This document shows positions 48,808-63,945 of a DNA stretch of 64,000 nt, piece by piece. The notes under the pieces were generated by a model. That model was given only the letters and a program-made list of their open reading frames with translations, did no database searches and was not told the DNA's origin. The DNA lies in contig JAFTYE010000008.1 of assembly GCA_017464805.1 (NCBI GenBank), forward strand, positions 57,261 to 121,260, read 5' to 3'. Every line of letters begins with the position of its first letter. Position 1 is the first letter of the stretch. Made by a program: the position numbers and the translations under genes. The stretch is from Clostridia bacterium (lineage in GTDB: Bacteria; Bacillota; Clostridia; Oscillospirales; CAG-272).

Positions 48808-49126
48808 AACATTCACTCCCTGAATTTATATTGATGGAATTTGGCAACCGAGCCGAAAAAAGGCTGTTCCGATTGCAGTTCCATTGTAGCATAGTTTGGC
48901 AAAAAATGCTTTACACGAAATTGTTTTTTTCAGATTGCCAAAAACAGGCCGTGTTTTTCCTTGTTTGCATCTCCTTTCGAAAACGAAAGCGTAGCAAAAA
49001 AGCAGAATCCTTCAGTTTTTTCAAAAAACGGTTGGCTTTCGGACTTCCTCGTCTTTTTACACTTAATTGTGATTGGGCCCTTTTTCCTCACGTGTATTTT
49101 TTCGTGATTGTTCCTTTTTCGTCATC

Positions 49127-49165
49127 AAAAAAATCACCCCCGCAACGTGCGGGGGTGATTTTTTT
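49127..49165 (-). terminator. ABC operon terminator
   Basis: A7-TCACCCCCGCA..TGCGGGGGTGA-T7. Confidence 0.85.
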
Positions 49166-49166
49166 A

Positions 49167-49982
49167 TCAGGAAAGCAGGGCACGGTCGCTTGCGAATTCC
49201 TCGCCCGACACGCGGGAGAACATAGCAAGCAGAGTCTCGACGGTGAGGTTTTTCTTTTCCTCGCCTGCGATATCCAAAATGACCTTGCCATCCTTGAGCA
49301 TGATCAGGCGATTGCCGTGCTCGATGGCATCACGCATGTTGTGCGTGACCATCAGGGTGGTAAGCCCAGCCTCGGCGACGATCTCTTCGGTGATCTCCAG
49401 CACCTTGGCGGCGGTCTTGGGGTCAAGAGCCGCGGTATGCTCGTCGAGGAGTAGCATCTTGGGCTGCACAAGAGTCGCCATCAGCAGGGTCAGTGCCTGA
49501 CGCTGACCCCCCGAGAGCAGGCCGACCTTGGAGCTCATGCGCTCCTCAAGGCCCAGCCCCAGGCGGGCAAGTTCCTTGGCGTAGAGCTCTCGTTCCTTGG
49601 CGGAAATTTCCCAGCGCAGGCCGTGCCGCTTATCGCGGCGGTAGGCAAGCGAGAGATTTTCGGCGATCTCCATATTCGGGGCGGTACCCATCATCGGATC
49701 CTGAAACACGCGGCCGAAGTAACGCGCGCGGCGATGCTCGGGCAGGAACGTGATGTCCTTGCCGTCCAGAATGATCTCGCCCTCGTCTAGTGGGAAAACG
49801 CCGGTCAAGGCATTCATGAGCGTGCTTTTACCCGCGCCGTTACCACCGATGACGGTGATAAAATCACCGCGGTTGATGGTCAAGGATAGGTTGTCCAGCG
49901 CGCGCTTTTCATTGATCGTACCACCGTGAAAGATCTTGGTGATACCGCGGATCTCCAGCATGGGGGTGTTCTTTTCTTCCAT
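49167..49982 (-). CDS. ABC transporter ATP-binding protein (aromatic amino acid importer type)
   Basis: GGNGAGKST, VFQDPMMGT, LSGGQRQ, LLLDEHTAALDP. Confidence 0.93.
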   Translation of the reverse strand: MEEKNTPMLEIRGITKIFHGGTINEKRALDNLSLTINRGDFITVIGGNGAGKSTLMNALTGVFPLDEGEIILDGKDITFLPEHRRARYFGRVFQDPMMGTAPNMEIAENLSLAYRRDKRHGLRWEISAKERELYAKELARLGLGLEERMSSKVGLLSGGQRQALTLLMATLVQPKMLLLDEHTAALDPKTAAKVLEITEEIVAEAGLTTLMVTHNMRDAIEHGNRLIMLKDGKVILDIAGEEKKNLTVETLLAMFSRVSGEEFASDRALLS

Positions 49983-49983
49983 A

Positions 49984-50904
49984 TCACGCACCCCCCTTCT
50001 TGTGGCTACCACGGTGCTTGATGGCTTTTTTTGCGCTGTCCAAAATGGCGGAAAGGCCGAGTGCCACCGTGATCACAAGCGCGGTGAGCAGCTTGAGATT
50101 GTCGGGAGACATGATGTTGGCATCGATGATGACCGTCACGATCACGCGGTAGATCACCGCGCCGATCGCCACACCGAACAGACGCAGCACGAATCCGCGG
50201 GCACGCTTGAAGATGGTTTCGCCGATAATGATGGAGGCAAGCGCGATGACGATCGCGCCGACACCCATGGTAGAGTTTGCGGAGGATTGATACTGACAGA
50301 GCATGCTGCCGCCCACGGCCACCAGGCCATTGGAGAGCGCAAGCCCAAGGATCTTGGCATTGTCGGTATTGACCCCCTGTGCACGGCACATTTTTTCATT
50401 ATCACCCGTCGCACGGACGGTACAGCCGAGCTCGGTCCCGAGGAACCAGTACAGAGCGTATACCACCAAAATGACCAGCAGAACGCCGATTATCAGGGCG
50501 GAATAGCGGCGGCCGATCTCGAGCAGGCCGTTGACCTGATCGTACAGCGTGTTATGTTTGCCGATATTAATGTTCGGGCTCTGCATGATCATCAGATTCA
50601 CGGAAAAGAGGGCAGTCATGGTCAGAATGCCCGCAAGGATCGGCGGGATCTTCAGCTTGGTGTGCAAAAGACCCGTCACGATACCGACAATACAACCCGC
50701 GAAGAAAGCACAGATCACCGAGAGAGCAGGGGGAACACCTCCCGCGATGAGCACGCCGGAAACCGCCGCGCCGCAGGTGAAGCAGCCCTCACAGGACAGA
50801 TCGGCAAAATCCAGAAGGCGGAAGGAAATGAATACCCCCAACGCCACAAAGGCCCAGATCAATCCCTGGCAAGCACCCGTAAGAAGCGTATCGAAAGACA
50901 ACAT
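49984..50904 (-). CDS. ABC transporter permease
   Basis: FRLLDFADLS.EG.F, ILAGIL, RATGDN, GLALSNG, LASIIIGE. Confidence 0.92.
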   Translation of the reverse strand: MLSFDTLLTGACQGLIWAFVALGVFISFRLLDFADLSCEGCFTCGAAVSGVLIAGGVPPALSVICAFFAGCIVGIVTGLLHTKLKIPPILAGILTMTALFSVNLMIMQSPNINIGKHNTLYDQVNGLLEIGRRYSALIIGVLLVILVVYALYWFLGTELGCTVRATGDNEKMCRAQGVNTDNAKILGLALSNGLVAVGGSMLCQYQSSANSTMGVGAIVIALASIIIGETIFKRARGFVLRLFGVAIGAVIYRVIVTVIIDANIMSPDNLKLLTALVITVALGLSAILDSAKKAIKHRGSHKKGGA

Positions 50905-50925
50905 AGTGGATGGTAACCTTTCTGA

Positions 50926-51960
50926 TTAGCCCTTGTTGACCGTGTGGATGTTGGCGGCACCGTTTGCCAGAGCATTGTCGGTGGGAACATAAACGAGGTC
51001 AACGCCTGCATTCTTCAAGGCAACGAAGGCGGATTCGAGGTCGTTGATATCGCTGATGCCGCGAACCTCGTAGGTGTAGCCGAGATCCTCGCAGGCGGCC
51101 TTACCGAGGTCTACCTGGAAGATAGAGTTGGTCTCGCCGGAGGAATAGAGGAAGCCGATCTTCACATCGTCCTTGCCGAGCAGCTCACCTGCCAGCTCGA
51201 TCTGCTTGGCAACGGGGTTGATGTCCGACACGCCGGAGACATTGGCACCGGGGGCATCCATGCTGGCAACCAGGCCCTCACCGACAGGGTTGGTAACGGC
51301 GCAGAAGAGGACGGGGATCTTGTTCTCGCGGGTTGCGTTGGCGGCAGCCACGGAGGAGGAGGTAGCGATGGTGTAAATAAGGTCAACGTTCTGGTTGACG
51401 AAGGTCTCGGCGATGGTGATGTTGTTGGAATCCTCACCGCTTGCGTTGCGGTCAAGAACCTGAACAGTCTTGCCTGCCGCCTTCATACGGACGGAAAGCT
51501 GATCCTGGAAGCCTTTGTTGGACTGGTCGAGAGCCACGTGCTGTACCAGCTGCAGGATGCCGACAGTGAAGTCTGCACCGCTCTCCACGATGGCGTCGGT
51601 ACGGGTCACCTGGGGGGCGGCACCACCCTCTGCACGGTCAAGGATGGCTTGCGGGATAGTAAAGCCGATCTCCTCGGCCAGCTCGGGGTTTACGTACAGG
51701 GAGGGATTGGGGTCGGTCTGTACGGGCATGGTGGAAACGTTTGCGCCGTCCAGCAGGATATCGGCGGCCATATCGCCTGCCTTGACACCCAGGCTGTAGT
51801 AGTCAACGCCGTAGGTAGCGACGCCGCACTGCTCGGTCATGCCGGTCTCGCCGCACACAACGGGAACAGGGCCGGTGCTGCCGCCGCAGGCAGTCATGGT
51901 GACGGGGACAGCGAGGCACACCAGTGCCAATACGATGGAGAGAATTTTCTTTGCGTTCAT
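50926..51960 (-). CDS. ABC substrate-binding lipoprotein (ABC_sub_bind type), circularly permuted
   Basis: Lipobox MTAC; family motifs GILQ..QH.ALD, AVTNPV..GLV, PG.NVSG.SD, PTDN and YGVDYY.LG are all present but in rotated order. Confidence 0.88.
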   Translation of the reverse strand: MNAKKILSIVLALVCLAVPVTMTACGGSTGPVPVVCGETGMTEQCGVATYGVDYYSLGVKAGDMAADILLDGANVSTMPVQTDPNPSLYVNPELAEEIGFTIPQAILDRAEGGAAPQVTRTDAIVESGADFTVGILQLVQHVALDQSNKGFQDQLSVRMKAAGKTVQVLDRNASGEDSNNITIAETFVNQNVDLIYTIATSSSVAAANATRENKIPVLFCAVTNPVGEGLVASMDAPGANVSGVSDINPVAKQIELAGELLGKDDVKIGFLYSSGETNSIFQVDLGKAACEDLGYTYEVRGISDINDLESAFVALKNAGVDLVYVPTDNALANGAANIHTVNKG

Positions 51961-52002
51961 GATGTTGCTCCTTTATGTAAAAATTTATTGGGGAAACGAA
52001 AC

Positions 52003-52258
52003 AAAAAAATGCCCCCATACCCAACAGGTACAGAGACGAGCAAGCCGTGATACCACTCTGCTTCACCGTTTTTTTGCAAAAACGGCCTCACGAACGCCAA
52101 TCAGCGTCCCCGCGATATAACGGTCGCACCCGGCAAGACCTACTTTGGTTCAGCCCGCAGCTCCCAAAACGAATTTCACCCGACGCCACCTCTGCCTTGC
52201 ACCGACCGGCATTTCTCTGCACGCGCTTTTCGGGGTACTCCCTTTCTGATCATCGCCT
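52003..52258 (-). ncRNA. T-box riboswitch, specifier UUC (Phe)
   Basis: Minus strand: GCGATGA, AGTA, CAGAGA, GGTCGGTGCAA, specifier GAAA-TTC-G (52171-52173), T-box AGAGTGGTATCACG (52046-52059), terminator ending in T7. Confidence 0.85.
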
Positions 52259-52266
52259 ATGCTAAA

Positions 52267-52295
52267 ATAATAGCACCGTTTCGCCGTTTTGTCAA
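52267..52295 (-). promoter_or_regulatory. Sigma-A promoter of the T-box leader
   Basis: TTGACA-17-TATTAT with TGn. Confidence 0.7.
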
Positions 52296-52389
52296 GTGTT
52301 TTGTCAAGTATTCATCAAGTATTTTTTTTGGCAACGGAGAAAGAACAAGGGTATTTGCGATCCAAACACCACAAATATTATTAAATATA

Positions 52390-52418
52390 TTGACAAGATA
52401 CCATTTTTTTGGTAAAAT
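52390..52418 (+). promoter_or_regulatory. Sigma-A promoter
   Basis: TTGACA-17-TAAAAT. Confidence 0.75.
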
Positions 52419-52471
52419 AAAAGGGCATTATCATATTTTAGTGAACACCCCATTAAAAAGGAGGCGCGGCG

Positions 52472-53500
52472 ATGAACACAGAAAACGGCACGATCGCCCT
52501 TCCCCCCTCGGCAGATGGTAATTCTCTTCGCCGCGCGGCTTGGTGGTCCTACTTCCGCGTGGGTCTGGGACTATTTCTCTTCTCCCTGATCCCGCAGGTA
52601 CTGGCCATCGCGCTTTCCTTCGTTTTACCACTCGTGGCACCCGAGGTCATTGCTTTTCCGCTTTTTACGTGGATCTTACAGGTAGTGCTGATGTACGGTA
52701 TCGCCTTTCCGGTGGCGTATGTTGTGATTGGCCGTCCCTCTCTTCCCTTTCCGAATGAGGGGAGCCATCCGCCCTTTTTGCTTTTCTTTACCGTGTTCTG
52801 CCTGCTCTCCACGACGGCGCGCCTCGGATCGCTGATCGGCGAGACGCTGATGATGGCTGTGGAGGCGATTAGTGGCATCCCGCAGAGCAATCCCGTGACC
52901 GACATGCTGAGCGACACGCCGTTGTGGGTCATTTTCGTTGTCGTGGTGGTACTCGGGCCTGTGGTGGAGGAGCTTCTTTTCCGCCATGCGGTGATGCGGC
53001 GGTTACTTCCCTTCGGAGAGAAGAACGCCATTTTCTTCTCCGCTGTTGCCTTCGGTCTGATGCACGGCAATTTCTATCAGCTCTTTTACACGGTCGGCAT
53101 GGGTGTGCTGATCGGTTACTTATACGCGCGCACGCGCATGGTGATTTATCCCATCCTGTTGCACATGCTATACAATTTCATGGGATCGATTCTGCCGCTT
53201 ACCTTCACCTCCTCTCTCGAGGATCTGCTCACGCAGATAGAGAGCGGAACGCTGACCCCCATGCTCCTGTTGCAAAATGCCCTGCCCTTGTGCGGCATGC
53301 TGCTGTATGTGGTGCTGGTGCTTGGGCTTTCGGTGACGGGTGTGATTCTTTTGCCAGTTTATTACAAGCGCATTCATTTCGCGCCCTGCCCTCACCCCCT
53401 TCGCACGTCCGAGCACGTGCGCGCCTGCTTTGCGAACGTGGGCGTTATTCTGTTCATTTTGATGGCCTGCTTTGAGCTGGTATTATCTCTTATCCCTTAA
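52472..53500 (+). CDS. CPBP family intramembrane metalloprotease
   Basis: [19 protein letters not shown] motifs; multi-TM. Confidence 0.92.
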
Positions 53501-53522
53501 TCCAAACGAAAGGAATCCCGCT

Positions 53523-54344
53523 ATGGAATACCCATCCACCAAGGAGGCTCTTTTGCGTGCGGCAAACGTGCTGGCACAGAAAAATGCAACCTCCGCAAGC
53601 CCGATACGCCCCGCCTTCGGCGCTCGTATCCTACGCTTCTTGAATCTGACACGCGCAGCCATGTACCCAACGGTCTTTGCAGGGGATGCCGGCGTGTGCG
53701 AGGCACAGGCCCTGGCCGCGGCAGCGGAGGAGCTTGCCTCCCTGCTTTCGGAAACGGTCGAGGACCACTCCCGGCACGAGGGCATCATGACGTGCTTTTT
53801 CGAGCGTCTGCCCATTGTGCGCGAGATACTGGACACCGATGTGCAGGCCGCCTACGAGGGCGACCCCGCCGCACGCTGCGCGGAGGAGATCATGCTGGCC
53901 TATCCCGCCTTTGAGGCAATCAGCATATACCGCCTGGCCCACGAGCTGTACGTGTTGGGCGTTCCGCTTATTCCCCGCATGATGACCGAGCACGCACACA
54001 AAAGCACGGGTGTGGATATCCACCCCGGGGCAACGATCGGACGCTATTTCTTCATTGACCACGCCACGGGGGTTGTTGTGGGGGAAACCTGCACCATCGG
54101 CGATCACGTGAAGCTTTACCAAGGCGTGACTCTGGGTGCCAAGAGCTTTGAACTGGACGAAAACGGCAATCCCGTCAAGGGCATCAAACGGCATCCCGAC
54201 ATCGGCAATCACGTTGTCATATACGCAAACGCCACCATCCTTGGAGGAAGCACCGTCATTGGCGATCATTCCACCATTGGCGGCAACGTCTGGCTTACCC
54301 ATTCGGTCGAGCCGGGCAGCACCGTGTACTACCGCGGACAATAA
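53523..54344 (+). CDS. cysE: Serine O-acetyltransferase (EpsC/CysE type)
   Basis: [41 protein letters not shown]. Confidence 0.9.
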
Positions 54345-54438: not shown

Positions 54439-57400
54439 ATGAAAAAGAGAATCTTATCCTTCATTCTTGCACTCTCTACGATCCTTCTGGCGATCCCTGC
54501 CACGGTATTCCCCGTTATGGCGGCAGAATCGGCGGAATCTGACCCAATCGTTCTCTCCTCCACAATCTTTGCCCCCAATCAGGAGGGCACCTGGCCGATC
54601 TTTGACGAATACGACACGACGGCCATGAACACAAACGACTACGTAGGCGTGACCTACCGGGGCGGCTGGCAGATCGGCTACAAGCACGCGAGTGGAAACT
54701 CCTCGAACTTCACCCCATACGAAAAGCTGATCAAGGCGACAGGCAAGCTCGGTGAGGACGGAGAGATGATCCTGACCGCAGACACCGGCTACTGGACGCA
54801 GTGGGGCGGCCTGTACATAAAAAGTACCGCCAGTGCCAACCTGATGTTCTCCGGCGTGGATCTGGATGAGGCGACCGGCTACCTCGAGGCAAACGTGGCT
54901 GCCAACGCGACCGTCCGCTACACCGCAAAGGAAACGGGTACGATCCGCGTGAAGGTAAACGAGCTGTACTTCTACTCGGACAGCGCGACCTACTTTGCCG
55001 TGTACCACAACGGCGTGCGCGTACATGACCCGATCATGGCGGTCAATGCCAAAAGCCAGATCGTGAACGGCGCGTTCGTATCGAAGACCGCCTCCAACAA
55101 CGCGTCCCTGTTCACGACCGTGACGCTGGATGTGCAGAAGGGCGACTCGATTGACTTTGTGTCCCACGCGAATCCCGATTTCAACGCCTCCAATCTGGAG
55201 GAGCTCGGGCTGACCCAGTTTACAAAAACGGAGTACGTGAGATCCAAGCGCGGTCTTTCGGATTACGAGTTCCAGATCGATTACATTGCGGAAAAGACCT
55301 CCTACTCCACCCGTTTCTCTCCCGACGAAGAGAGCACCTTCCCCGTATTCGAGGGATACAGTGTCGCCGCGATGGAGAATGGTGATTCCGTAGGCGTCAC
55401 CTATCCCGGCGCATGGCAGATCGGCTACCGCGATCCGAACGGCGAGACGGCGAACTTCACCGCCTACGACAAGCTCTACAAGGTGAACTCCTCGGGACAG
55501 ATGATTCTGTCCGCGGGCTCGTCCTACTGGTCTGACTACGGCGGCGTATACATCACGGGCGTGCCTACCCTAATGTTCTCGGGCATGAGCTACACAGACG
55601 ACTATACCTCCGTCACCTCGCACAATGCCGACCCCGTGATCCGCTACACGGCGGAATATACGGGTATGGCTCTTATTCGTCTTAACGAGCTGTATTTTTA
55701 TGCAAACAACGCGGCCTACTTGGAAATTCTGCACAACGGCGTACCGCTGACCGATCCATATCTGTCAACGGATGCGCAGTACCGCGTACAAGACGGTGCC
55801 TACACCTCCGCGGGTGCGGCCAACAAGGGTGCGGATCTCGGCACGCTGGTACTTGAACTCACCGAGGGTGACACCATTGATTTCGTATCCCGTGCAAACG
55901 ACGATTTCAATGCCTCGAACATCGAATCCCTCGGCTTGACCAAATTCGACGGAACCGAATACGATTACGCCAAGCGCGGCATGCTCGACTTTGATTTCGA
56001 GATCGTTTATCGTTCCGAAAAGGATGGCGGCAAGGCGGAGAATTTTGCCGGCACGACAGACACCACGCTGCCCGAACCGCTGTTTGTATGGTACGATGCA
56101 AGCGGTACCATGCTGGAGGACAGCGACATCCGTGAGGCAGCGGGAAATTTTCCCGACACCTCGGGAAGCACGGACATTGTTTTCTCCTCCCTCGTCTCTC
56201 TGTTTGACTGGCTTTATCGGACGGGCGGCAGCTATGCCGAGATCAATCCCACACTGATCGCAAACGGTACAATCTCCGAGACCGATAACTACGCAAACAT
56301 TCTTGCAAAATACAAGACGTATCTCGCCTCCTTCACCTCACTCTCCTTCCCGAGTGGTTGGAAAGCAGGCGTAAGAGCCGGAAGCAGCTTCACGGCATTT
56401 GACCGTCTGTGCTTCTTCTCGGACAGTAACCTCTTTGCCGTCGGGCAAGCGGGCGGCATCGCCTCTGCCTTGGTCGATTACAGCTATAACGGCAATCTCT
56501 TTGTGACGAGTGCACAGTTTACCGCTGCCCTCGATGCTTTCATTGCCAACGCCGCATCCATCACCCCGAGCGGCACGGCCGCCTCGGATCTGCGTCTCGA
56601 ATATGACGGGATTCCCGAGGGGATGACGCTTCCGACGCAGGGCACCGACCCGCTGGCAGCGGTCGGCGCGGCCATGAAGCACCAAGGCGGCAACCTCTTC
56701 CTATGTCCGAGCGCAAACGGCGGCATCGCCTCCTACGCTTATACGGTTCCGAGCGGCTATGATCGTCCGATCCTGTCGCTTACGGCCAATGCCGTCCGCT
56801 TTGACGGGGATGCAAGTGCCTTCCACTACGCCATCGCCGTGAACGGCGAGGTCGTGTGGCCCGTCGGTGCGACGATGTCCTCCGCGATGGCCGATCACGA
56901 TTCCATGACCGGTTGGCAGCTTTGCACCTCTGCAGAAGATCTCACAAGCACCCTCGCCTCTCTGCATTTCGAGGTAGAGAGCGGTGACGTTGTGGAGCTC
57001 TGCGTGGCGCGCGCCTATGAGGGCGGCGCGGAGATCGGAGACGTATGCGTAGGTATGGATCTGACCGCCACCACCGACAACTATCACGATGTAAATGTGC
57101 TGGATATCATCCGTTCGGGTAAGTACCTACACCGTGGTGTGTACGAATTCGGCAGCACCGTGACGCTTGCCGACCTCAATCTTCCCGACACCTTCGGTGC
57201 GAACGGTGTGTACATCAACAACACCTCCTTATCCGAGGAGCTACCCACCTCGCTCACCATGTATCGCAACTACCGCATCACCGACATGGTGCTGCAAAGC
57301 TCCGCTTCGGTTTCAATCACCTCTGCCTTTGCCGTAAATATTTACGTGCAGGCGCAGAGCAGTGCAACTGCCGCCGGTGTGGTGATCGATGGGGAGAAGG

Positions 57401-60400
57401 TTCCCGGCGTTTTGCAGGGCAATAACGTATACAAGTGCACCCTGCCCGTTGTTCCCAAGGATCTGCCTGCCATGGAGGTCTCCTACAAGGCATACCAGAC
57501 TGTGGACGGCAAGGATACCGTCAACGCCGACCCGATCACCCTGTCCGCCTTTGACCTGCTTGCATTGTATGAGGCAAGCGAGGACGAAACGACCGCCCTG
57601 CTCGCCAAGACCGTTCGTTATTACAGCCTGGCGGCACGCGACTACTTCATCAACCAGAAGGTAACACTTTCGGACGACGTGAAGAACGCCCTGCGCGGCA
57701 GAGCAGATGCTTCTGCGGTCGGTACGAATGACACCGCCATCCTGACAATGGTCGATGCGTATAAGGCAGGCACGGCTTATCAACCGTATCCCGATGGCAC
57801 AGACGTAAGTGCCTTTGATTTCAAATTCAACGGTATCACGCTGAAGCTGGATAACACCCTTGGCTTCCTCTTCCGTACCAAGCGCACGGACGACACTCTG
57901 TTCGGCGAGCCCAGCCTGCGCCTGCGCGTCACGGATGCAAACGATAATGTTCGCTACTACGCGGATCCCGCTTCTCTCTTTGATGAGGAAGGCAAGGAAA
58001 TGCTCTACTTCGTGGGCAACCTTCCCGCTGCGGAATACGCAAGCGAGTTCTATTTCACGCTGGTGGACGGCAACGGCACGGCACAAAGTGCTACGCTGAC
58101 CTATAGTGCCTACGCTTACATCGCCCGTACTTTCAACACCGCAAGCGGTGACGACAGTGCCCTGCATTATCTACTTCGCGGCATTTATGCACTCGGCGAG
58201 GCAACCTCCGCGTATCTGGAGGTACACTCCCTCAGTTATGACGCGAACTACACGTTTGACATCGGCGACGGCGGTGACGCCCTGGTTTCGAACGACCCCG
58301 TTCTGAAGGAGGTCACCTACGATCCCTCCACCGCTACCGTTCTTTCCGCAAATGAATTCTTTAACACTGCACTGGAAAGTGGCAGCGTGTACAAGGTTAG
58401 CGACAACACCCTGACCCTGACCGACGCAGACGGCGGCAGCTACAACGCAAACGGTGCAATCCTCATCGCCTCGGGTGGTCTGATCATTGACGGCTGTCAG
58501 GACGTGACCGTATCCGACTTGGTCGTGGTCGGTCCCGTCATCATTCGCAATTCGAGCAACGTGATTCTGGAAAACTGCCAAATCCTGGCCCCCACCCAAA
58601 CGAGTGTATCGGTAGAGGCAACGGCAGAGAGCATCGTGCTCAACGCCTGCCGCATGATCGGTACGACCGCCGTGGCGAACGCCGCAGACGAGCTGACGGT
58701 CATGAACTCCTACCTCGGCTTCTCCGGGGACGGTGTGCGGGATACCGCATCGAACGGTACGACCGTACAGAACTGCCGCCTGGTCGGCACGGGCAGCGGC
58801 TCTGCCATCTACTCCACCGCTTCGGAATCCGCCTTCCGTTTTAATACCATCCTGCAGAAGCGCGTCACCTCCTCCGGCATCGTGCTGAAGGGAGACGGCA
58901 GTACGCTGAATGTGCTGGTTGCGCAGAACGTAATCTCCGGCACACGCAGCTCCATGAGCATCAGCGGCCTTCTCAACGCATCGGTCGTTCTGAATAGTGC
59001 CGTAACGATCGAAGCGAGCGACAATAAGAATCTTTACCTCTGTGACAACGCCATCGGCGGCAGACTGGTGCTGACAAGCAACAACTACCTGCTGGCAGAC
59101 GGCAACCGATTCCCCGACGACACGATGGATCACACCACCGTGTCCACGGATAACCAAAATACCAACGGCGACAGTCTTATGGACGTGAACGCCCGTGTGG
59201 ATGTTGGTGCGAACGAGGATCTGCTCCCGCACGTGGATAAGGATCTGTTCCTCGGCATGGAGCGCAAGGAAGCAGTCAAGGATGTCACCTCCGCTACCAA
59301 GCTGGATGTCTACAAGTACATCACTACCAACTCGCTGGCAAGCAACAGCCACTACATCGTGGTAGCACCCGGTGCTTATCTGCTGAAGGACAGCGACTAC
59401 AACAGCAAGAACGGTCTGGAGCTCACGACCTCCGGCAGCAACGGCGACCGCATTTACGCCTACGGTGTCTATGCGGAGCATGAATCCGGGCTCTATCGTC
59501 ACATCACCCTCTCCGATGTAGAGGATGTGACCATCAAGGGACTTTCCATCGGCTACGCCGCACAGTCGGTCGGCCAGGTACAGATCCTGGAAAAGATCGA
59601 CAACACGCACTTCCTGGCCGTAGCCCCTGCCGGCATGACGGCTGACCTTTTCGTGAATTCCACCAGCTCGACTTATCTGCACCGCACCGGCCGTGGCGAG
59701 GAATACATCTTCTGTGACCTCACAGGCTTCAGTGCTGTGGACAACGGTGACGGAACGGTCACCGTAACGGCATCGGCAACCTATGCAGAGCTACTCTCCG
59801 TAGGTGACACCCTCACCTGCCGCGCTACCGGCAAACAGACCGTAACCACTTCCCGCTGCGCGGATATCCTGTACCAGGATATGACCGTGTTCGGCAACTC
59901 CGGCGGTCTTTGCTTCGTGGAAAGCGATAATACGGGCTACGTTACCTATCATCGCATTCTGGACACCAACCGCAACGGCAGAGTCATCGATCAGGCAACC
60001 TACGATGCCTACGAGGCTCTGGAAGCCGAGTATGGCGTGGACCTTGACATCCACGTGGATGAGGCAGGCCGCCTGCGCGGTGCCAAGCAGCTGGTTGGCT
60101 CGGTAGACGCTACCCACGTCATCTCCTGCGCTTACGGCTCGCAGATCATCTCCTGTATCTTCGAGAACATGTGCGACGATGGCACCAACCAGAAGTCCAC
60201 CCACGGCCGTCTAGCTTCGGTGACCGACAACGGTGACGGCACGACCACCCTTGTATACAAGAGCTCCATTTCCATGCGCAACGTGGCCGCAAACTACACC
60301 TCCACCGGCATCTGCCCCGACTTTGAGATCGGCGACCGCGTATTCATCTACACAGCGGCAGGGCAGCGTGTATGCGACACGCCGGCACTTTCCGCAACGG

Positions 60401-63400
60401 TAGAGATCGACTCCTACAAGTCTACGTATCGAGATGTGGAGCGCACCATCGTCAGAAAGTCCGTTACGGTCAAGACCGATGACGTGAACTTCGACGCTCT
60501 TACGGGCTACGACCTCACCATCGACACGGCAGAGGATGAGCACAAGGTACTAATCGACAACCGCACAAGAACCTCGAACAGCTTCCGCATTGAGAACACC
60601 GTGATTGACGGAACCCGCTCGCGCGGACTTCTCATCAAGTCCTCGAACGGCGTGATCCGCAACTGTACGCTCCGCAACATTGCCAAGGTCGGTATCGCGG
60701 TGCTGTACGAGATCTACTGGGGCGAATCGGGCGTTTCCGAGAACATTCTCATTGAGAACAACCTCTTCGATAACGTCAGCTATAATCCTCATTCCAAGGA
60801 AACGGATAACTACCAGCACTACCCGATCTACATCGCGGGTCTGGGCGGCGGCACGCTGCAGGAAGACTACCTGTTGTACACGGACATCACCGTGCGCGGC
60901 AACGTGATCCGAAACCGTCATTCCGACCACGCGGTATACGTTCGTGCAGCCAAGAACCTTGCGTTCTACAACAACGATTTCGGCAATGCTCTGACCGAGA
61001 CTGCCGACGACCCAAAGGCCACCTTCAAGTTCAACGGTGCCCTGAATGTCGAGCTTTCGGGCAACACCTACTCATCCTATCTGACCGACATTCAGCAGGC
61101 ATATTACGGTCCTGCGTATGACAACATCTACGGTCTTGACGTTTCCAAATACCCCTATCACGATGAGAACAATAATCTGTTCATTCGTTATCAGGATACC
61201 TACACCTTCCCCGTGGCGATCGAGGCGATCGAGAACGCGGCAATCACCAGTAAGGTGACCGGAACCGATACGATGGATGCCAATCTTCTGGTTCTCCAAG
61301 AGGATGGCAAGTCCGTCTATGCGGATGGCTGCGGTACCGCAACCATCCGTCTGGTGGACGGCCGCACGGTGAACATCACGATCGATCCTTCCGACATTTC
61401 CCTGTTCTTCGTAACGGGCCAGTCGAACGCATCGGCCGACCACAGCTTCACCAAAGAGAACAATCCCGAGGAATACGAAAAATATCACGACACCTACGCG
61501 GACTACTTCATCCGTACCGCGCCTACCATGGCCTACTTCACCTGGACGGGTCAGTCCCTGTCCCTGACAGGCACCTACAATCCCGAAAACTCCGTCACCG
61601 ACACCCTTGACTGGGACAACATGGGTAGCCAGGCCTTCGTTGACCCGAAGGTGTTCAGCATTCCCGTGGGCTCGACCACGTTCGGTAATGCCGGTTGGAG
61701 TGCCGCGCTGGCCCATGAATGGGTCGAGCAAACGGGTGAGCGCGTCTGGATCGTCAATGCCTCGCACGGCGGTCACGGCATTGCGGAATTCGCACCCAGC
61801 GAGGATGGAACACCCGTGGATAACGACTACTATCAGGCGGTGGCGGTCTTCAACGAGGCTCTTGAAACGCTGTACGCTGAGGTCGATGCCGGCCACTTTA
61901 CGCTCAACCACATGGCCTACTATTGGTTCCACGGCTGTGCAGACTATCAGCAGACCGAGGAATACTACACCGAGGGCTTTGCCAAGATGCACACTGCCAT
62001 GCAGGCGGATGTGGTGTACAACCACGCCGGCGTTGAGAAGAAGCTGGAATACTGCGGCATCATGGACATCCGCTCCAAGCATGATAGCTCGGGCAACTCC
62101 TACGCTGAGAAATATCTGACGGGACCGCGTCTGTCCCACTATCAGGCGGCAGGTGCCACGGACGGCGTGTTCGAAAACGTCTTTATCGCCTCCAACGTCA
62201 CCCAGAGATGGCTTGGCGATGACCAGAATGTCGTGGACTACTTCCTGGAGACCTACGGCTCCGTGGAGAACTTCAAGGCGATCTTCGGCTACGACATGCC
62301 TACCACCCGTTGGGAGCTACACCCGAACGTACACTACCTGATGATGGGTCACAACGAAATGGGTATGGACTGCGCCCGCAACACCCTGCGCATCATCAAC
62401 GCACTTGGCACGGGCAAGACCTACGTTCACGACTACGTGGATAACTCGTCCATCAGCATCACGCTGGTCGGCCGCGACGGTCACACCCCCATCACCGATA
62501 CCATCAAGCTGCAGGAGAACAACGGCAACACCTTACTCCTGCCTCTGATAACGCCCACCTGGCGCACCATGGACGGCGTTTCGCTGGTATCCGAAACCGC
62601 AGGCTTTACCTTCGTGGGCTATGAGCTGTACGCCACCGACACGACCAAGTCCCAGATCACCTTCTCGGTCTACGTAGGCGAAACGAATGTTCAAACCTAC
62701 ACCATGGCAATCGAGTGGGTATCTTCCTTCACGCAAAACGCACCGCTTTACACCTATGAGAACGGAAGCTACACACTGACCGGCATGCAGAGTCCCTGGT
62801 CGGTTGGTTATGTGAATCTTTCGGATAAGAGCTTTACGCCGTACAGTGCCATTTCCACGAGCGGTTGGATCGGCATCAACACGAACTCGCACAGTCAATA
62901 CGGCTCCTTCACCGTTGGCTCCTGGAATGCCTCGATGCAGCCGAGCATGCTGGGCGCAGCCACGTTCTGTTACACGGCCACCAAGGATGGTAGCATTGCC
63001 ATCTCTGCCGAGAAGTTCGATGCAGCGACCTATTCGGGCGGTGTGGGCACCTTCCTGGCTGTGATGGTCAACGGCAACATTGTCTGGCCGACGAGTGCCT
63101 CCTCCTATTCCCTACCCACCTCCACCGCCGACACGACCTGGCAGTATATGCCTGACTCCACCGACGGAACGGCAGAACTGAATGCCCTGTGGGCCGATGT
63201 TCGCCTAACGGTTAACAAAGATGATCTGGTACAATTCTGTCTGATCAGTGATACCGACCGTTCGATCACGGGCGGTGAGACCAAGACCAACTCCCAACCG
63301 ATTCTGCACCCTGTCGTTACCTACGTGGAATCCTCTTCCTTCACGCACTTTACGCCCGTGGTCAACGAGGATAACACGGCCACGATGCGGGCACCCTGGT

Positions 63401-63945
63401 CAATGGGGTATCTATCCATCAGTAGCGGCAATTTCACCCCGTACACCAAGGTAGTGAACGGATGGCTGACCGCCAACGATTCCGCACACAGTACTTACGG
63501 CTCCTTCTGGACGAATGGGTGGAGGGCATCTATGCAGAGCAACATGGTCGCCGCCAACACCATCTGCTACACTGCCGAGAAAGCAGGCACGTTGAGCATC
63601 TCTGCTGAAAAATTTGACGCAGCGATCACTAGCGGTGCAGCGGGAACCTTCCTCGCTGTGATGGTCAACGGCGTGCGCGTTTGGCCGACAAGCGGAAGCG
63701 TACCCTACTCCCTGCCTACCACGACCACGAGCACGGATTGGCAGTTCATCACCGGTACCACCACCGATTCTACTGATGAGACAGCGACGCTGAATGCCCT
63801 GTGGGCAGATGTTCGTCTGACGGTCAATAAAAACGACCTGGTACAGTTCTGTCTGATCAGTGACACCGATCGTTCGATCACGGGTGGCTCGACCAAGACC
63901 AACAGCCAGCCGATCCTGCTTCCTGGCGTGACCTACGTGGATTAA
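54439..63945 (+). CDS. Giant secreted multimodular protein (3168 aa) with GH110-like beta-helix, SASA esterase and repeated unknown domains
   Basis: AAGGAG RBS, signal peptide MKKRILSFILALSTILLAIP..MAA, uninterrupted ORF; DATH..FENMCDD, RSRGLLIK, GQSNAS motifs. Confidence 0.9.
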   Translation: MKKRILSFILALSTILLAIPATVFPVMAAESAESDPIVLSSTIFAPNQEGTWPIFDEYDTTAMNTNDYVGVTYRGGWQIGYKHASGNSSNFTPYEKLIKATGKLGEDGEMILTADTGYWTQWGGLYIKSTASANLMFSGVDLDEATGYLEANVAANATVRYTAKETGTIRVKVNELYFYSDSATYFAVYHNGVRVHDPIMAVNAKSQIVNGAFVSKTASNNASLFTTVTLDVQKGDSIDFVSHANPDFNASNLEELGLTQFTKTEYVRSKRGLSDYEFQIDYIAEKTSYSTRFSPDEESTFPVFEGYSVAAMENGDSVGVTYPGAWQIGYRDPNGETANFTAYDKLYKVNSSGQMILSAGSSYWSDYGGVYITGVPTLMFSGMSYTDDYTSVTSHNADPVIRYTAEYTGMALIRLNELYFYANNAAYLEILHNGVPLTDPYLSTDAQYRVQDGAYTSAGAANKGADLGTLVLELTEGDTIDFVSRANDDFNASNIESLGLTKFDGTEYDYAKRGMLDFDFEIVYRSEKDGGKAENFAGTTDTTLPEPLFVWYDASGTMLEDSDIREAAGNFPDTSGSTDIVFSSLVSLFDWLYRTGGSYAEINPTLIANGTISETDNYANILAKYKTYLASFTSLSFPSGWKAGVRAGSSFTAFDRLCFFSDSNLFAVGQAGGIASALVDYSYNGNLFVTSAQFTAALDAFIANAASITPSGTAASDLRLEYDGIPEGMTLPTQGTDPLAAVGAAMKHQGGNLFLCPSANGGIASYAYTVPSGYDRPILSLTANAVRFDGDASAFHYAIAVNGEVVWPVGATMSSAMADHDSMTGWQLCTSAEDLTSTLASLHFEVESGDVVELCVARAYEGGAEIGDVCVGMDLTATTDNYHDVNVLDIIRSGKYLHRGVYEFGSTVTLADLNLPDTFGANGVYINNTSLSEELPTSLTMYRNYRITDMVLQSSASVSITSAFAVNIYVQAQSSATAAGVVIDGEKVPGVLQGNNVYKCTLPVVPKDLPAMEVSYKAYQTVDGKDTVNADPITLSAFDLLALYEASEDETTALLAKTVRYYSLAARDYFINQKVTLSDDVKNALRGRADASAVGTNDTAILTMVDAYKAGTAYQPYPDGTDVSAFDFKFNGITLKLDNTLGFLFRTKRTDDTLFGEPSLRLRVTDANDNVRYYADPASLFDEEGKEMLYFVGNLPAAEYASEFYFTLVDGNGTAQSATLTYSAYAYIARTFNTASGDDSALHYLLRGIYALGEATSAYLEVHSLSYDANYTFDIGDGGDALVSNDPVLKEVTYDPSTATVLSANEFFNTALESGSVYKVSDNTLTLTDADGGSYNANGAILIASGGLIIDGCQDVTVSDLVVVGPVIIRNSSNVILENCQILAPTQTSVSVEATAESIVLNACRMIGTTAVANAADELTVMNSYLGFSGDGVRDTASNGTTVQNCRLVGTGSGSAIYSTASESAFRFNTILQKRVTSSGIVLKGDGSTLNVLVAQNVISGTRSSMSISGLLNASVVLNSAVTIEASDNKNLYLCDNAIGGRLVLTSNNYLLADGNRFPDDTMDHTTVSTDNQNTNGDSLMDVNARVDVGANEDLLPHVDKDLFLGMERKEAVKDVTSATKLDVYKYITTNSLASNSHYIVVAPGAYLLKDSDYNSKNGLELTTSGSNGDRIYAYGVYAEHESGLYRHITLSDVEDVTIKGLSIGYAAQSVGQVQILEKIDNTHFLAVAPAGMTADLFVNSTSSTYLHRTGRGEEYIFCDLTGFSAVDNGDGTVTVTASATYAELLSVGDTLTCRATGKQTVTTSRCADILYQDMTVFGNSGGLCFVESDNTGYVTYHRILDTNRNGRVIDQATYDAYEALEAEYGVDLDIHVDEAGRLRGAKQLVGSVDATHVISCAYGSQIISCIFENMCDDGTNQKSTHGRLASVTDNGDGTTTLVYKSSISMRNVAANYTSTGICPDFEIGDRVFIYTAAGQRVCDTPALSATVEIDSYKSTYRDVERTIVRKSVTVKTDDVNFDALTGYDLTIDTAEDEHKVLIDNRTRTSNSFRIENTVIDGTRSRGLLIKSSNGVIRNCTLRNIAKVGIAVLYEIYWGESGVSENILIENNLFDNVSYNPHSKETDNYQHYPIYIAGLGGGTLQEDYLLYTDITVRGNVIRNRHSDHAVYVRAAKNLAFYNNDFGNALTETADDPKATFKFNGALNVELSGNTYSSYLTDIQQAYYGPAYDNIYGLDVSKYPYHDENNNLFIRYQDTYTFPVAIEAIENAAITSKVTGTDTMDANLLVLQEDGKSVYADGCGTATIRLVDGRTVNITIDPSDISLFFVTGQSNASADHSFTKENNPEEYEKYHDTYADYFIRTAPTMAYFTWTGQSLSLTGTYNPENSVTDTLDWDNMGSQAFVDPKVFSIPVGSTTFGNAGWSAALAHEWVEQTGERVWIVNASHGGHGIAEFAPSEDGTPVDNDYYQAVAVFNEALETLYAEVDAGHFTLNHMAYYWFHGCADYQQTEEYYTEGFAKMHTAMQADVVYNHAGVEKKLEYCGIMDIRSKHDSSGNSYAEKYLTGPRLSHYQAAGATDGVFENVFIASNVTQRWLGDDQNVVDYFLETYGSVENFKAIFGYDMPTTRWELHPNVHYLMMGHNEMGMDCARNTLRIINALGTGKTYVHDYVDNSSISITLVGRDGHTPITDTIKLQENNGNTLLLPLITPTWRTMDGVSLVSETAGFTFVGYELYATDTTKSQITFSVYVGETNVQTYTMAIEWVSSFTQNAPLYTYENGSYTLTGMQSPWSVGYVNLSDKSFTPYSAISTSGWIGINTNSHSQYGSFTVGSWNASMQPSMLGAATFCYTATKDGSIAISAEKFDAATYSGGVGTFLAVMVNGNIVWPTSASSYSLPTSTADTTWQYMPDSTDGTAELNALWADVRLTVNKDDLVQFCLISDTDRSITGGETKTNSQPILHPVVTYVESSSFTHFTPVVNEDNTATMRAPWSMGYLSISSGNFTPYTKVVNGWLTANDSAHSTYGSFWTNGWRASMQSNMVAANTICYTAEKAGTLSISAEKFDAAITSGAAGTFLAVMVNGVRVWPTSGSVPYSLPTTTTSTDWQFITGTTTDSTDETATLNALWADVRLTVNKNDLVQFCLISDTDRSITGGSTKTNSQPILLPGVTYVD

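Follow-up and report, generated by a model that had tools for sequence, protein, structure and literature searches.

Does a substrate-binding lipoprotein whose two ends are encoded in the wrong order represent a working protein, or is it an error of assembly or a gene in decay? Natural circular permutations that preserve both the fold and the function of a protein are rare, and accounts of them are mostly anecdotal. The question is raised by a gene of the ABC_sub_bind family (PF04392) in an assembly assigned to a Clostridia bacterium (GCA_017464805.1), where an open reading frame encoding 344 amino acids occupies positions 50926-51960 on the minus strand of the window, that is, of the whole 64,000-nucleotide stretch of contig JAFTYE010000008.1 that was analysed. 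A preliminary description of this locus, made from its letters alone, had proposed that the protein is a circularly permuted binding protein of an ATP-binding cassette (ABC) transporter, and had named as checks a profile search, a structure prediction, the spanning of the junctions, and a search for homologues with the same order or for tandem-duplicated intermediates. Based upon the results described below, we conclude, with a probability of about 0.88, that the product of this gene is a functional type I substrate-binding lipoprotein of the TrpX / CD0873 type in PF04392 that has undergone natural circular permutation.

The order of the chain is evident from the family profile. PF04392 matches the protein with 178.9 bits against a cut-off of 25.9, and this match is split into two stretches rather than being colinear, with profile positions 212-290 preceding positions 2-213. 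When the whole genome was searched for the family in six frames, the same arrangement emerged, in which a downstream part corresponding to profile positions 2-213 and an upstream part corresponding to 212-290 of 293 lie in one frame. Hence the two non-overlapping matches in swapped order that had been predicted were obtained, and since the profile coordinates of the two pieces abut, with zero residues lost or repeated, the claim that no part is missing or duplicated holds as well.

The same swap is found when the protein is compared with individual family members. Residues 132-341 align with 4-208 of the solved structure 3lft, and residues 29-110 with 211-291. The structures 6hni and 3lkv repeat this two-piece pattern, with E-values for the single pieces of 1e-7 to 1e-32, and the relocated piece corresponds to index 233-306 of 6hni. 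The nearest canonical relative that we found is P0122, a protein of 330 amino acids in normal order, whose residues 26-245 match query residues 126-342 at 61% identity and whose residues 251-327 match query residues 32-108 at 51% identity. Query residues 109-125 are unmatched in P0122. The two blocks of P0122 are separated by only five residues, the equivalents of the C-terminal tip and the N-terminal tether newly formed in the query, and the motif that follows the lipidated cysteine in P0122 is still recognisable immediately ahead of the VGILQ strand of the query. A colinear alignment over the full length, which would have spoken for an ordinary family member, was not seen with any of these canonical proteins; 3lft, 6hni, 3lkv and P0122 match only piecewise. 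Such a clean swap of PF04392 pieces is far beyond chance.

When the protein is read from its N-terminus, it begins with a signal peptide (residues 1-25, positions 51886..51960), read from the sequence, that ends in the lipobox M-T-A-C25. The strict lipobox pattern has no match in the query protein and matches in many orthologues, and Cys25 is invariant across the 40-sequence orthologue alignment A1. A short tether of about eight residues after Cys25 lies between the lipobox and the relocated piece (residues 29-110, 51631..51876), which the 3lft, 6hni, profile and P0122 alignments equate with the C-terminal ~80 residues of the family and which carries E38 and Y54. There follows a linker (residues 111-130, 51571..51630) without a canonical counterpart, whose length of about 17-20 residues is kept across the permuted clade and which bridges the former C-terminal end and the former N-terminus of the mature protein. 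The main piece (residues 131-344, 50929..51570) comprises the N-terminal ~210 residues of the family and ends one helix past the PTDN loop, where the stop codon (50926-50928) is reached. All of these features lie on the minus strand. The layout bears out the preliminary description, which had placed the C-terminal segment of the family directly after the lipobox, a linker of about 20 residues behind it, the canonical N-terminus at residue 131 and the stop shortly after PTDN.

This order is not peculiar to one genome. The best 120 homologue clusters, with identities of 59-88%, are all colinear with the query, and hidden Markov models specific for each piece find the C-terminal piece followed by the N-terminal piece in 120/120. 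Among the best 80 loci in contigs from one genome per species, 38 are permuted and 42 are canonical, and the search for homologues of the same order was thus answered at both levels. The 38 permuted loci come from metagenome-assembled genomes labelled Eubacteriales, Clostridia, Oscillospiraceae and similar, from the guts of sheep, deer, buffalo and human; one of them bears a label that NCBI assigns to Bacteroidales. The canonical loci belong to Christensenellales, Erysipelotrichaceae, Sutterella and others. Altogether, the permuted clade is large and takes in no fewer than 120 clusters at 90% identity, as well as 39 species.

The residues expected to contact the ligand are retained in both pieces. 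In the excerpts available from the study of CD0873 (PMC6816091), Glu263 bonds the tyrosine hydroxyl, Tyr279 blocks Trp, and Val235-Pro236 hold a water. These positions correspond to E38, Y54 and V325-P326 of the query, as given by the alignment with the deposited structure and by an offset checked on the 6hnj superposition, and E38, Y54 and P326 are invariant in alignment A1. Judged from its sequence, the protein has the set of residues of a CD0873-type tyrosine binder (Glu, Tyr, and the Val-Pro of the PTDN loop). By their positions, E38 and Y54 put two key pocket residues within the relocated piece, and the cleft would be built from both pieces, with E38 and Y54 contributed by the relocated piece and V325-P326 by the main piece. 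The ligand is most likely tyrosine and/or phenylalanine, which would be passed to the adjacent permease-ATPase.

How such a protein could have arisen is best considered in the light of its distribution in the family. Forty relatives besides G000 were examined, 24 of them from the same genus; eight have a PF04392 match, and all eight matches are single, colinear and canonical. Across 401 genomes of the order, G000 and G263 alone are colinear with the query over the full length among the 150 matches listed. The distribution of the permuted form is patchy. A profile search of 1.84 billion representatives returned 32,990 family matches, and the 149 new best representatives include 105 canonical proteins, 39 tandem proteins, three fragments, and two rearranged proteins, P0186 and P0259. 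The tandem proteins (P0121, P0123-P0129 and others) carry two to five units in 594-1532 amino acids, and the junctions between their units read in permuted order. Three other proteins of 375-428 amino acids (P0326, P0328 and P0362) depart from the canonical form only in that part of the first ~145 residues is duplicated internally.

P0186 has the order of the query and falls in a different clade. P0259 has a different order, in which the second half of the main piece is followed by the relocated piece and then by the first half of the main piece; its cut lies inside the second lobe, between the first helix and second strand of that lobe. This order is common to 58 of the 121 clusters examined (P0259, P0270-P0325 and P0327), and the AlphaFold2 model of P0259 has a predicted local distance difference test score (pLDDT) of 88.8 and a predicted template modelling score (pTM) of 0.85. 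Trees were built from pieces that had been re-ordered canonically. The permuted clade of the query is monophyletic, with a value of 99 in the Shimodaira-Hasegawa-like approximate likelihood ratio test (SH-aLRT), is sister to canonical P0122 (92), and branches from within canonical proteins (98, 99). For the P0259 clade, monophyly is likewise supported (99), and this clade falls inside another canonical group. By an approximately unbiased (AU) test, the grouping of all permuted forms in one clade is rejected (log-likelihood difference 304, p 7.5e-6), and a placement of P0186 with the P0259 clade is not (p 0.058). Taken together, the AU test and the trees indicate that PF04392 has been permuted at least twice, with two cut points. 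We do not count P0186 as a secure third origin, since it is known from one cluster of two sequences and one 1335-bp contig, and no colinear relative was found among its best 120 relatives.

A plausible route for the clade of the query is tandem duplication or fusion, which would have been followed by loss of the first N-terminal part and the last C-terminal part. Five Erysipelothrix loci (L104, L115 and L117-L119) carry two or three canonical PF04392 genes in tandem, and such an array could be the starting arrangement for the fused and permuted forms. The tandem-duplicated intermediates anticipated in the preliminary description did not turn up close to the query's clade, and the linker between the units of the tandem protein P0121 is only about seven residues long. 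The tandem proteins that we found fall in other clades of both trees and hence are not direct ancestors of this clade, which leaves duplication, fusion and trimming plausible only. Alternatively, the ~240 nucleotides at the 3′ end of the gene might have moved in a single step to just after the lipobox, with no duplication, fusion or trimming at all. The position of the tandem proteins in other clades would fit such a move, as would the best 120 relatives of the query, among which there is neither a C-N-C form nor a closely related tandem. However, this family makes tandem fusions, as seen in 39 of the 149 new representatives, it makes partial internal duplications of the kind noted above, and the other cut point of the second subfamily is explained naturally by duplication and trimming. 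The linker does not favor a single step either, as its donor is unmatched under either route: the signal peptide of P0122 shows no convincing likeness in a comparison by eye. We therefore consider a single-step move unlikely, and retain duplication and trimming as the plausible history of the query's permuted clade.

The structure prediction that had been proposed as a check returned a single confident bilobed model. AlphaFold2, run on the 40-sequence alignment, gave one bilobed fold with a mean pLDDT of 91.6 and a pTM of 0.81, in which residues 30-110 score 91-98, the linker scores about 75-92 and forms one beta bridge, and residues 3-23 of the signal peptide form a helix. Residues 129-344 of the model superpose on residues 43-254 of CD0873 (6hnj) with 211 residues aligned, a root-mean-square deviation (rmsd) of 2.6 and a Z of 18.4, and the superpositions on 3lft and 3lkv are similar. 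The top matches in the structure search are all type I binding proteins, and the predicted model has the two lobes of the type I / cluster B class. Foldseek and VIA are sequential aligners, and a sequential alignment covers only 211-222 residues of a member of the query's own family.

From the order of secondary structure elements and the three hinge loops described in the excerpts on CD0873 (PMC6816091), the cut appears to separate the fourth helix of the second lobe from the fifth strand of that lobe. The two termini created in this way, and with them the lipid anchor, would then lie in the second lobe rather than the first, in agreement with the preliminary description, which had the anchor moved to a different point of the fold. 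The three hinge loops also imply that the canonical termini lie in different lobes, such that joining them adds a crossing; the linker would accordingly be a fourth crossing between the lobes, leading from the second back to the first. In this arrangement, the main piece would account for the first lobe, the first hinge crossing and four second-lobe strands. The relocated piece would contribute strand five of the second lobe, the second and third hinge crossings, one strand and one helix belonging to the first lobe, and the last part of the second lobe.

A protein could also be functional without being a monomer of this kind, if the pieces complemented each other between chains in a domain-swapped dimer or if the N-terminal piece were a separate module. 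What lends itself to such an arrangement is the linker, which is modelled with the lowest confidence and is under the weakest constraint in the chain (pLDDT about 75, and a ratio of nonsynonymous to synonymous substitution rates, dN/dS, of 0.37), together with an intramolecular placement that comes from confidence scores and pocket residues. Nevertheless, AlphaFold2 yields a single compact chain that has no low-confidence break between the pieces, the clade keeps the linker at 17-20 residues, and the sequence and model data, which do not extend to oligomeric state, give no sign of a dimer. We regard a swapped dimer or separate module as very improbable.

Patterns of substitution indicate that selection maintains the permuted chain. 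Of the 666 pairs that 37 permuted loci form, 187 had a usable dS; in these, the relocated and main pieces had a median dN/dS of 0.154 and 0.152, respectively, and the linker one of 0.368. The values are rough because dS is near saturation (median about 1.2-1.3). The relocated and main pieces are clearly under purifying selection, and the linker is less constrained. The reading frame is intact in 39 loci. The permutation is genuine and conserved and, as far as can be judged from sequences, very probably functional.

It could nonetheless be supposed that the gene is a decaying remnant of a fused tandem pair, whose product neither folds nor binds, or that the transporter runs without its binding protein. 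The form is indeed rare in the genus, where relatives with a PF04392 match are canonical, and the NCBIfam equivalog model for TrpX (NF041285) scores the protein at 230.8 bits against a cut-off of 390, with its best stretch covering only residues 129-337. This failure is to be expected, because the chain is permuted. The remnant scenario is at odds with the intact frames and the dN/dS of about 0.15 in both pieces, with the invariant pocket residues, with the confident AlphaFold2 model, and with the standing of the gene as the only PF04392 gene of its genome at the head of a conserved operon under T-box control, and we judge it to be still less probable than a swapped dimer.

The junctions were examined in the contigs of three public runs. 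Each of the three has one contig that spans 51484-52300, from the T-box through the signal peptide, relocated piece and linker to the start of the main piece, and another that spans 50800-51513, from the end of the main piece through the stop codon into the permease, both with 0 differences. Both permutation junctions are hence bridged by single contigs without a difference in 3/3 runs. The swapped order is not a misassembly. In all three runs, contigs start or end within the main piece at 51484-51513, where they overlap by 30 nucleotides. The assembly graph seems to branch here, at a strain variant or a shared word, and neither permutation junction lies at this point. A contig mis-join or a collapsed tandem pair of canonical genes could be imagined in a draft genome of 17 contigs whose gene is broken at this point in the Logan contigs of 3/3 runs that are possibly the assembly's own source, but it can be dismissed, as the break lies within the N-terminal piece and away from the junctions, one contig carries the T-box through to the start of that piece and another its end, the stop and the permease, and the identical order recurs in 120/120 near homologue clusters from several sources and in 38 genomes that come from different hosts and were assembled independently.

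The surroundings of the gene are those of a regulated importer operon. A sigma-70-type promoter on the minus strand (52267..52295), TTGACA-17-TATTAT with a TG ahead of the -10 hexamer and 11/12 consensus matches, sits 5 nucleotides upstream of the start of a match to the T-box leader RF00230 (52029..52262, minus strand; model 1-219 of 219, E 6.5e-18) with the specifier UUC (Phe). A terminator hairpin with a T run (52011..52037, minus strand), consisting of 12 pairs and then ATTTTTTTGT, overlaps the 3′ end of the T-box match, and a GGAG motif stands 9 nucleotides ahead of the ATG. Directly downstream on the same strand are an ABC permease of 306 amino acids (49984..50904; BPD_transp_2, PF02653, 116.3 bits) and an ABC ATPase of 281 amino acids (49167..50012; PF00005, 99.9 bits). 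The promoter, ribosome-binding site, signal peptide with its invariant Cys25, and cognate permease and ATPase listed in the preliminary description are thus all present. Its T-box stands as a full-length model match and falls short on score; at Rfam gathering thresholds, no match was found in 49000-53000, and the T-box appeared only in E-value mode.

The specifier codon presumably follows GAA plus one base, and its position was read in the cmscan alignment. Orthologous leaders exceed the Rfam gathering score in 10 of the 20 loci searched, and specifiers are readable in 12 of 39 loci, with UUC in four and UAC (Tyr) in eight; these were accepted from cmscan alignments, from a stricter pattern, and in one clear case (L048) from a loose pattern. 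The loose pattern was otherwise dropped, having mostly caught the AGAGA region of stem I, as was a GGC specifier at L073 that looks spurious. In the permuted loci, a permease homologue lies no more than 200 nucleotides downstream in 38/40, and the ATPase follows the permease in 39/40, the exception ending at a contig edge. The six-frame family search found no other PF04392 locus in this 1.76-Mb genome, which is 91.7% complete. Uncharged tRNA-Phe sensed by the T-box would turn expression on, as would tRNA-Tyr or tRNA-Phe in the orthologues. The pocket and the T-box specifiers, both read from sequence, would point to Tyr/Phe over Trp, and by analogy with the trpXYZ operon of Streptococcus suis, the protein is most likely the Tyr/Phe receptor of a T-box-controlled ABC importer.

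On the plus strand, divergent from the binding-protein gene, are an Rce1-like CAAX-type membrane protease (52472-53500, PF02517) and a hexapeptide-repeat transferase (53472-54344). Beyond them, also on the plus strand, a very large open frame (54439-63945) of more than 3168 amino acids begins with a signal-peptide-like start and ends about 55 nucleotides before the end of the window; it has repeated internal blocks of about 250 amino acids and no Pfam match at E <= 0.001.

Several observations weigh against a working permuted protein, or blunt the case for it. Residues 30-110 would occupy their canonical position in the model on the strength of confidence scores and conserved pocket residues only. 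The three runs come from one study, which is possibly the source of the assembly, and hence they are not independent, so that the weight rests on the independent genomes. The 120 best relatives yield no C-N-C form that would link the clade to the tandem proteins, and near saturation of dS limits what the substitution ratios can carry. The T-box scores 81 bits against the Rfam gathering score of 93. The failure of the TrpX equivalog, expected or not, leaves no curated model vouching for function. Finally, a Tyr-like pocket is set against a Phe specifier at this locus, and thus the ligand call is not sharp. Our probability for the working, permuted lipoprotein takes these points into account.

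The rotation seen here is a known type of event; it is of clear interest for protein evolution and for the mechanics of binding proteins, and does not establish a novel type of system. Pairs of a canonical and a permuted protein, such as the query and its sister P0122 with 51-61% identity per piece, would allow the effects of connectivity, of the anchor position and of a fourth hinge on opening, closing and docking to be measured. For annotators, the permutation gives a reason why such proteins fail equivalog models, and for the engineering of biosensors, it offers an aromatic amino-acid binder with new termini that nature has already validated. A more ambitious proposal is that PF04392 holds a natural series of repeated permutations, in which canonical, tandem and part-duplicated forms and two cuts coexist, and that the permuted forms are also non-neutral through the moved anchor and a fourth hinge strand. 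We offer this combined proposal only tentatively and think it rather doubtful as a whole. If the series is real, the duplication-and-trimming model could be tested directly within one family, and if the permuted forms are non-neutral, altered opening, closing and permease docking would explain their fixation in tethered lipoproteins of Gram-positive gut bacteria.

The closest known systems are the canonical members of the same family. CD0873 of Clostridioides difficile (6HNI/6HNJ/6HNK, Tyr), SP1069 (3LFT, Trp) and VC_1101 (3LKV, Phe) are homologous to the query over the whole mature chain, with 32-36% identity over ~210 aligned residues, and share the type I bilobed fold; the pocket Glu, Tyr and Val-Pro of CD0873 are kept in the query. 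The S. suis TrpX system, like the operon described here, combines a lipoprotein, one permease, one ATPase and a T-box, and trpXYZ is under T-box control according to the excerpts available from PMC9382623. All of the solved or studied members compared (CD0873, 3lft, 3lkv and TrpX) are canonical. In contrast, the query has the last ~80 residues first and the old termini joined by a new linker, and appears to have both new termini in the second lobe. Its T-box specifier is Phe, and those of its orthologues Phe or Tyr, not Trp. We found no description of permutation within the PF04392 family in PubMed Central (PMC) open-access and bioRxiv full text, and the only natural permutation of an ABC binding protein found in these sources was TpMglB-2.

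TpMglB-2 (Tp0684, 5JX2) of Treponema pallidum is a naturally permuted type I ABC ligand-binding lipoprotein that binds glucose/galactose, and its chain is cut in the N lobe, so that the three leading strands of that lobe are found at the C-terminus (PMC4990184). In the excerpts available from that study, its authors define a 'Type Ic / Cluster Bc' subclass, state that the permutation requires a fourth lobe-to-lobe crossing, find such proteins chiefly among treponemes and Gram-positive bacteria of the gut, and suggest that tethering may be the reason (PMC4990184). The query model (residues 30-344) aligns with 5jx2 end to end, over 252 residues with an rmsd of 4.4, a Z of 15.5 and 14% identity, and this alignment may result from the two-fold similarity within the fold rather than from a lobe-for-lobe match. 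The Pfam family Peripla_BP_4, used for comparison with TpMglB-2, scores 20.7 bits on the query against a cut-off of 35.1. So far as the excerpts on TpMglB-2 allow a comparison, both are circularly permuted type I ligand-binding proteins, but they belong to different families, and the N-lobe cut of TpMglB-2 differs from the cut of the query, which appears to be in the second lobe, with a C-terminal segment moved to the front. Beside TpMglB-2, the one published natural case that we found, the locus described here represents a second ABC binding-protein family with a clean cut.

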